From assembly GCF_044324785.1 (NCBI RefSeq), contig NZ_CP172127.1: 64,000 nucleotides of DNA, one strand, 5' to 3'. The stretch is from Escherichia coli. Lineage in GTDB: Bacteria > Pseudomonadota > Gammaproteobacteria > Enterobacterales > Enterobacteriaceae. The position numbers and the translations under genes are program-made. Within the stretch, counting starts at the first letter, position 1. Every line of letters begins with the position of its first letter. Below the pieces are notes generated by a model, which was given only the letters and a program-made list of their open reading frames with translations, did not search any database and was not told where the DNA came from. This document shows, piece after piece, positions 6,191-6,848 of the stretch.

Positions 6191-6261
6191 AAGAGGTATT
6201 TTACAATTCGCGAATATTAACTATTATTAATTGATAGTAATCAATCGGCGAGAAAATAACC

Positions 6262-6525
6262 ATGCCTACCAGTGTATCCCTCAGTCCTTACTTTGAAACG
6301 TTTATCCGCGAACAAATAGAAAGTGGTCGGTACAACAATACAAGTGAAGTCATTCGTGCCGGACTTCGTGCGCTGGAAGAACGGGAACAGCAGATAAAGC
6401 TTGAATCACTCCAGAGCGCCGTGACCGCAGGCATCAACAGCGGTGAAAGTAAAAGTGCTGAAGAGGTATTCGGGCGACTGACGCACAAATACAAAAAGAT
6501 GGCAGAAGGTGAACAGCCAATATGA
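6262..6525 (+). CDS. ParD/CopG-family ribbon-helix-helix antitoxin
   Basis: 87 aa; motif GRYNNTSEVIRAGLRALEEREQ typical of ParD-type antitoxins; 4-bp ATGA overlap with the downstream toxin gene. Confidence 0.8.
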   Translation: MPTSVSLSPYFETFIREQIESGRYNNTSEVIRAGLRALEEREQQIKLESLQSAVTAGINSGESKSAEEVFGRLTHKYKKMAEGEQPI

Positions 6526-6848
6526 AACTGACTGTTTCACCATTAGCAGAACACGATCTTGAAGCTATAGGTGACTGGATCGCTCAGGATAATCCTGTCC
6601 GTGCAATCAGTTTTACCGAAGAGCTTTACCAACAATGTCTGTTGATAGCCGAATCGCCAGTACTCTACAGAGAAAGACCCGAGTTAGGGGCTGGGATCAG
6701 AGGTTGTTCGTATGGTCGTTACCTTCTGCTGTTCAGGGTACTGGATACTGAAGTTCGTATCGAACGTATCGTTCATGGTTCCCGGGATATCAACAGGGTA
6801 CTTGCAGAGCCAGACGACAAACCATCAGATCATTTCTGGCAGCCATAA
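6522..6848 (+). CDS. ParE/RelE-family type II toxin
   Basis: 108 aa; ParE-like pattern including YRVLDTEVRIERIVHGSRD near the C-terminus; translationally coupled to the upstream antitoxin. Confidence 0.8.
   Translation: MKLTVSPLAEHDLEAIGDWIAQDNPVRAISFTEELYQQCLLIAESPVLYRERPELGAGIRGCSYGRYLLLFRVLDTEVRIERIVHGSRDINRVLAEPDDKPSDHFWQP

Follow-up and report, generated by a model that had tools for sequence, protein, structure and literature searches.

Among described toxin-antitoxin systems, the pairs most similar to the locus analysed here are alphaproteobacterial chromosomal ParD/ParE pairs of the CC2985 type, such as ParDE1 of Caulobacter (3KXE) and ParDE2 and ParDE3 of M. opportunistum (6X0A, 5CEG), which combine an antitoxin carrying an N-terminal ribbon-helix-helix with a ParE-fold toxin. 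ParE2 of V. cholerae is a gyrase poison. Footprinting of the V. cholerae parDE2 operator showed protection of 33 bp (-21 to +13) in a sequence with imperfect short palindromes spaced about 10 bp from each other (PMC10776004). For parDE of plasmid RK2, post-segregational killing with SOS induction and filamentation has been directly observed by imaging (PMC10899753). Toxin-antitoxin modules are also reported to maintain integrated elements after excision, namely ParESO-CopASO of prophage CP4So (PMC8706911) and HipAB of the Shewanella island CGI48 (PMC8978831). The carriers in these two reports are CP4-type or tRNA-integrated elements, like the island described below, and the antitoxin partner of ParESO is of the CopA type, whereas the partner of our ParE is a ParD. 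In E. coli ST38 and ST131 a 'parDE module separating two genomic islands' at tRNA-Phe was noted without being characterised, and orphan parE copies were reported in ST131 (PMC12632120, 2025).

The window, by which we mean the whole 64,000-nucleotide stretch of E. coli DNA that was analysed, encodes one ParD/ParE pair:

6262-6525, plus strand: parD, 87-aa ribbon-helix-helix antitoxin, predicted autorepressor; RefSeq WP_001143297.1
6522-6848, plus strand: parE, toxin of the ParE class (108 aa), probable DNA gyrase poison; RefSeq WP_000779483.1

Both genes are intact and co-oriented, with the antitoxin gene first, and they are translationally coupled through an ATGA (6522-6525) in which the stop codon of parD and the start codon of parE share 4 bp. 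An earlier reading made from the sequence alone had described exactly these coordinates, lengths and overlap. Small, adjacent, overlapping genes in this order are the layout of a type II toxin-antitoxin operon, and gene order and sizes are also those of the CC2985-type pairs, as are the N-terminal ribbon-helix-helix of the antitoxin and the ParE fold of the toxin. The two groups differ in that the window pair belongs to an enterobacterial subfamily located on a tRNA-Phe island, with an operator sequence of its own and a disordered, variable C-terminal tail on the toxin. The locus is an ordinary, canonical type II ParD/ParE operon and a textbook member of its family. Our preferred reading, to which we assign a probability of roughly 0.8, is that this operon is the terminal cassette of a CP4-like tRNA-Phe island and that its net effect is to addict the host to the island.

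The assignment of the two proteins to the ParD and ParE families, also made in the sequence-only reading, was borne out by Pfam and NCBIfam profiles, matches to solved structures, a fold search and synteny. The parD product matched Pfam PF03693 (ParD_antitoxin; 3.9e-17, 62.9 bits, curated cut-off 21) and, over residues 3-70, NCBIfam TIGR02606 (5.2e-28, 96.9 bits, cut-off 46.2). In phmmer searches of the PDB its best match was V. cholerae ParD2 (7B22, 5e-11; also 7R5A), with Caulobacter ParD1 (3KXE, 1e-10) and M. tuberculosis ParD1 among the others, and residues 3-64 aligned to the ribbon-helix-helix domains of solved ParD structures. These above-threshold profiles and the N-terminal DNA-binding region identify the protein, by sequence, as a ParD-family antitoxin of the TIGR02606 kind.

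The parE product matched Pfam PF05016 (ParE_toxin; 7.9e-18, 65.3 bits, cut-off 23). A comparison with known ParE and RelE toxins, proposed in the sequence-only reading, was run with phmmer against the PDB; at E ≤ 1 only ParE-type toxins were matched, and no RelE, YoeB, HigB or YafQ chain was found at this threshold. The best match was the M. opportunistum toxin 6X0A (2.8e-13, 39% identity), whereas Caulobacter ParE1 was 30% and V. cholerae ParE2 only 20% identical. The NCBIfam RelE_StbE profile (TIGR02385) stayed below threshold (24.3 bits vs a cut-off of 27.9), and so the protein does not fall within RelE/StbE. We built an AlphaFold2 model from a 69-sequence alignment (mean pLDDT 86), in which a strand (residues 2-5) is followed by two helices (7-21 and 25-44) and then three strands, a helical hairpin on a three-stranded sheet as in ParE toxins. 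The C-terminal tail (residues 96-107 in the model) is predicted to be disordered and varies between homologues, being 14-18 residues long. A Foldseek search with this model placed ParE-type structures in all of the top 22 positions (TM 0.71-0.90, the highest value for 6X0A; rmsd mostly 1.5-2), and the RNase toxins RelE, YoeB and YafQ came behind them at TM 0.5-0.7. In the model the 108-aa toxin is thus clearly nearer in fold to solved ParE toxins (TM 0.8-0.9) than to RNase toxins. A RelE-type RNase identity was judged unlikely on the basis of the sub-threshold profile, the lack of RelE matches in the phmmer search and the fold.

To our knowledge there is no diagnostic sequence motif for gyrase targeting. 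Because PF05016 is functionally mixed and comprises gyrase poisons as well as RelE-type RNases or mRNases (Gerdes 2025, PMC11980606), the gyrase target was inferred from closeness to ParE structures and not from such a motif. By this analogy ParE of the window is probably a DNA gyrase poison. PrpT and PfiT are among its closest solved relatives, and gyrase inhibition is unconfirmed for either.

Comparison with nine enterobacterial homologues gave dN/dS values of 0.03-0.08 for parD and 0.05-0.07 for parE, with synonymous sites near saturation; both are thus under strong purifying selection. Among 100,044 species genomes scanned, about 80 species had homologues, and in about 72 of these parD and parE are syntenic. 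In six of these about 80 species parE contained an internal stop codon while parD was intact, which looks like toxin decay with retention of the antitoxin; Pluralibacter gergoviae, Serratia sp. DD3 and Pectobacterium betavasculorum are examples. The window copy of parE has no such stop. DNA homology of the window with more than 15 other Enterobacterales starts sharply at 6213/6214, and the homologous unit of about 0.6 kb ends at about 6800. Elsewhere this unit is found between metabolic genes on Pantoea megaplasmids, next to xerC on a Salmonella IncF plasmid, and on CP4-like islands.

Such sharp limits in unrelated contexts, together with the interrupted parE genes, would also be expected of a purely selfish or decaying passenger that benefits neither island nor host and is kept solely by its own addictiveness and by horizontal transfer, and the mixed content of PF05016 and the near-miss to RelE_StbE leave room for a toxin with a target other than gyrase, e.g. 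a ribosome-dependent mRNase from the RelE-containing subcluster of PF05016. We consider both versions of this explanation highly improbable. In E. coli, 454 genomes carry both genes intact with an identity of 99% or more, dN/dS of the toxin is about 0.05, both the sequence and the fold comparison place the toxin with ParE and not with the RNase toxins, and its partner antitoxin is ParD-type and not RelB-type.

Near-identical parDE DNA was present in 472 of 5,426 complete E. coli genomes, always on the chromosome, and in 454 of these the identity was at least 99%; the parDE copy of the window was 100% identical to that of 12 complete genomes. RefSeq labels the E. coli copies as ParD family antitoxin and RelE/ParE family toxin. 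The module noted in PMC12632120 is the same DNA with the same annotation and the same position at the 3' end of the tRNA-Phe island, and we found nothing in which it differs. Since DNA, annotation and position are thus already on record in RefSeq and in that report, the pair is not new, and the operator motif and cassette polymorphism described below are small additions to it; the pair itself matters little beyond its correct annotation. In E. coli STE15 (NZ_CP095823.1) the match to the window stops at 6553, so that parD is kept and only the truncated start of parE remains.

The sequence-only reading had further proposed that short palindromes upstream of parD could act as an autoregulatory operator. 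Both named palindromes, ATTCGCGAAT at 6206-6215 and TTGATAGTAATCAA at 6231-6244, are present in the leader, and the second is better read as ATTGAT-AGTA-ATCAAT (6230-6245). Their occurrence is not above chance: when the 71-bp leader (6191-6261, 72% A+T) was shuffled 5,000 times with dinucleotide composition preserved, a perfect palindrome of 10 bp turned up in 22% of the shuffled leaders, an inverted repeat with arms of 6 bp in 29%, and the two together in 11%. Alone, they carry no weight. In aligned upstream regions of diverged homologues neither ATTCGCGAAT nor the ATCAAT arm was conserved, and ATTCGCGAAT falls outside the conserved cassette. Being at chance level and unconserved, the two palindromes were rejected as the operator. 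The same alignments revealed a conserved dyad that overlaps the second palindrome only in part, and a consensus scan found a promoter-like site across it:

6215-6239, unstranded: operator candidate, imperfect 25-bp dyad TATTAACTATTA-T-TAATTGATAGTA with two TAAC-N-GTTA-type boxes
6200-6227, plus strand: promoter-like site TTTACA-16 bp-TATTAT, 10/12 consensus matches, with the -10 hexamer inside the dyad

The two boxes of the operator candidate are 9 bp each (6218-6226 and 6228-6236) and lie 10 bp apart. Over 28 Enterobacterales loci with synonymous sites near saturation, mean column conservation was 0.90 in the block 6213-6240, compared with 0.56 for the sequence upstream of it and 0.64 for the stretch that separates it from the ATG. 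Because synonymous sites are near saturation in the compared loci, the conservation of the operator candidate exceeds the synonymous-site level. Among 70 regions upstream of parD, 59 contained the motif TAAYNRTTA and 47 the double box, invariably 29-44 bp upstream of the ATG; in 90-bp control windows taken from these loci a single box appeared in about 1% of cases, and the double box occurred once in the 64-kb window. Loci with boxes included Betaproteobacteria and metagenome-assembled genomes of high G+C with about 50% protein identity. In homologues the boxes typically lie between a TTGACA-type -35/-10 pair and a GGAG ribosome-binding site, and the common enterobacterial form and the form shared by the window and Yokenella are set apart by a G:C to A:T change mirrored on both arms of the dyad. 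The layout resembles that of V. cholerae parDE2, where the operator likewise covers the interval between the -10 region and the ribosome-binding site (PMC10776004), whereas the boxes themselves differ (GGTA or GTA[C/T] in Vibrio, TAAC-N-GTTA in the window) and a 6:2 repressor complex is a feature of the Vibrio system. We therefore propose the double box at 6215-6239 as the candidate conserved parDE operator. Its overlap with the predicted -10 is what would be expected under autoregulation, and it replaces the chance palindromes as a precise operator candidate for binding or reporter work.

The window copy of this operator is the most degenerate seen, with complementarity at 9 of 12 arm positions. 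The ancestral TTGAYR -35 of the homologues is absent from the window because cassette homology starts only at 6213, and TTTACA-16-TATTAT could have replaced it as a parDE promoter; the number of promoter-like sites in the region is not above shuffle expectation. With a degenerate operator and without the ancestral -35, regulation of the window pair may differ from that of its homologues. A minus-strand promoter-like site was also seen at 6921-6892, and such sites are again as numerous as expected from shuffles.

The position of the pair at the edge of the island was resolved as follows:

6152-6923, plus strand: parDE-specific insert, comprising leader, operator candidate, parD, parE and a 75-bp trailer
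6924-7095, unstranded: right arm of the island, non-coding and common to sister islands without parDE
7096-7114, plus strand: attR core, a 19-nt direct repeat ATTCCGAGTCCGGGCACCA identical to the 3' end of tRNA-Phe (pheU)

A gap of 247 bases (6849-7095) separates the parE stop (6848) from the attR core, in agreement with the sequence-only reading, which had placed the pair 250 bp from attR. Of 5,420 E. coli genomes, including those free of the island, almost all match this part of the window starting at 7093, where a tRNA-Phe and then cadC are annotated. In the window a pheU terminator (7124-7149, terminator scan) lies 3' of the attR core and is followed by cadC (7731-9269). ARAGORN found no tRNA in the window; attR contains no more than 19 nt of such a gene, and the complete pheU is situated to the left of the window. 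The junction of parE, attR and cadC was as in the window in 159 of the 472 parDE-bearing genomes, and in others a second island came after attR in tandem, the arrangement on record for ST38 and ST131. Yokenella regensburgei, with DNA that is about 78% identical, shows the same order of DUF4942, parDE, a spacer of about 225 bp and a 3' fragment of tRNA-Phe. In neither organism does a coding unit come between parDE and attR, and the terminal position is therefore older than E. coli. The trailer (6849-7095) showed no detectable similarity to that of Yokenella and has only its position and A-rich character in common with it.

The right arm is probably the integrase-binding arm of the att site. It contains a direct repeat GGCCTCA-N4-GGCCTCA (gggGGCCTCAttggtGGCCTCAaaaa, 7020-7045) followed by an A-rich tract up to attR, and the integrase may use these as arm-type sites. 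Yokenella has a similar A-rich tract in front of its attR. An Rfam search of 5900-7700 at permissive thresholds returned nothing, and no sign of a small RNA was seen between parE and attR. The sequence TTCGATTCCG at about 6923-6932 was considered as a second, degenerate tRNA remnant and found no support, as it starts the arm that is common to AbiE-bearing islands. parDE marks the exact right boundary of a pheU or pheV island family.

On its left side the pair follows a gene set (GTPase, DUF932, antirestriction, RadC/JAB, DUF987, YeeU/CbtA, DUF5983, DUF957, DUF4942) that is the standard right-end module of CP4-like islands. parDE is thus a cassette of about 0.6 kb that occupies the terminal cargo slot of a CP4-like tRNA-Phe (pheU) island, between the DUF4942 gene and the att arm. 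In islands without parDE, homology to the window ends at 6138-6151, just inside the 3' end of the DUF4942 gene. The last 13-17 or so codons of that gene differ with and without parDE, ending in ...HYPEALASTVNKSRKA in the window and in ...HYPEMLPSQ in BL21/C43, and by this comparison insertion of the cassette has remodelled the C-terminus of the DUF4942 protein (6138-6190). The right arm (6924-7092) was found at about 92% identity in about 645 further E. coli genomes without the parDE-proximal part, and two examples were aligned. In these AbiE-bearing islands homology on the left extends to about 6147 and resumes on the right with the arm 6924-7122, and the slot is occupied by a DUF6088 (AbiEi-like) gene and an AbiEii/AbiGii nucleotidyltransferase toxin gene (two genomes sampled). 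Sequence comparison thus indicates that the terminal slot can take up at least two different toxin-antitoxin cargoes, of which parDE is one. parDE occupies it in about 9% of complete E. coli genomes, an AbiE-type pair in perhaps another 12%, and in most others it is empty. Since 8 of 12 sampled DUF4942 ends had no cassette, parDE slot cargo is not needed for island maintenance generally.

Under the preferred reading, in which the operon addicts its host to the island, ParD dimers, probably as a ParD-ParE complex, would bind the two TAAC-N-GTTA boxes over the -10 and transcription start and repress the operon, and the C-terminal part of ParD would wrap around ParE and neutralise it. ParD would be turned over by Lon or ClpAP. 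Upon excision and loss of the island, ParD would decay and the longer-lived ParE would poison DNA gyrase, leading to double-strand breaks, SOS induction, filamentation and the death or arrest of island-free segregants. We infer gyrase poisoning, autoregulation and island addiction for the window pair from its family membership, its position and the ParDE biology of RK2, Caulobacter, V. cholerae and M. tuberculosis. The paradigm of plasmid addiction is parDE of RK2/RP4, with which the window pair would share a labile ribbon-helix-helix antitoxin, a gyrase-poisoning toxin and the killing of segregants. That pair resides on a plasmid and ours on an integrated island, and IncP plasmids in PLSDB showed no similarity to the window pair (tblastn, E ≤ 1e-5). 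For addiction the evidence at the locus itself is positional, namely that nothing coding lies between parDE and attR in either E. coli or Yokenella, and by analogy the pair most likely makes the island hard to lose.

The content of the slot also bears on a role in phage defence, which the sequence-only reading had named beside island stabilisation. The pair might be an abortive-infection module in which phage-induced shut-off of host transcription or degradation of ParD frees ParE to poison gyrase, and the slot might be a hotspot for defence cargo. The same slot between the same flanks does hold DUF6088 and AbiEii/AbiGii, whose family takes its name from abortive infection, strain MS1685 has a related island that additionally encodes a TIR-domain protein, and toxin-antitoxin systems are widely reported as defence systems (PMC11980606). 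Nevertheless we regard this as quite improbable. No PADLOC-DB v2 family matched ParD, ParE or the DUF4942 neighbour at E ≤ 0.01, no demonstration of phage defence by ParDE turned up in our literature searches, the AbiEii gene was frameshifted in both sampled islands, only 1 of 50,697 phage records encoded a homologue, and a slot shared with another toxin-antitoxin module fits addiction equally well. Island stabilisation is, by precedent, the better supported of the two roles. A broader proposal is tentative and in our view unlikely, if somewhat less so than defence alone: the interval between DUF4942 and the att arm could be a dedicated exchange slot for toxin-antitoxin and abortive-infection modules, with parDE acting both as a phage-triggered gyrase poison and in addiction, and the double box could represent a previously undescribed operator code of a ParD subfamily in Gamma- and Betaproteobacteria. 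The polymorphism of parDE, AbiE or nothing between identical flanks provides a natural strain set for questions of stabilisation versus phage defence.

A second toxin-antitoxin pair, of type IV, is located 1.4 kb upstream of parDE and consists of a YeeU/CbeA-type antitoxin (3970-4338, plus strand) and a CbtA-type toxin (4369-4839, plus strand). Next come DUF5983 (4802-5227), DUF957, which is a short gene, and DUF4942 (5324-6190). With this YeeU/CbtA pair and parDE the last 3 kb of the island carry two toxin-antitoxin modules. Between attR and cadC we found a tyrosine-integrase pseudogene remnant (about 7270-7470, plus strand), in which ATAGCACTGACTGAC at about 7277 resembles ATGGCACTGACTGAC, with which the integrase of a second, tandem island begins in strain DSM 103246. 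Even K-12-type genomes without an island at pheU have this remnant annotated in RefSeq. The remainder of the window is core E. coli (cadCBA, dtpC, dcuSR, fumB, mel, adi, eptA-basRS and others) and includes, downstream of lysU/lysS, the core-genome type V toxin-antitoxin pair ghoT (16585-16758, minus strand) and ghoS (16786-17082, minus strand).
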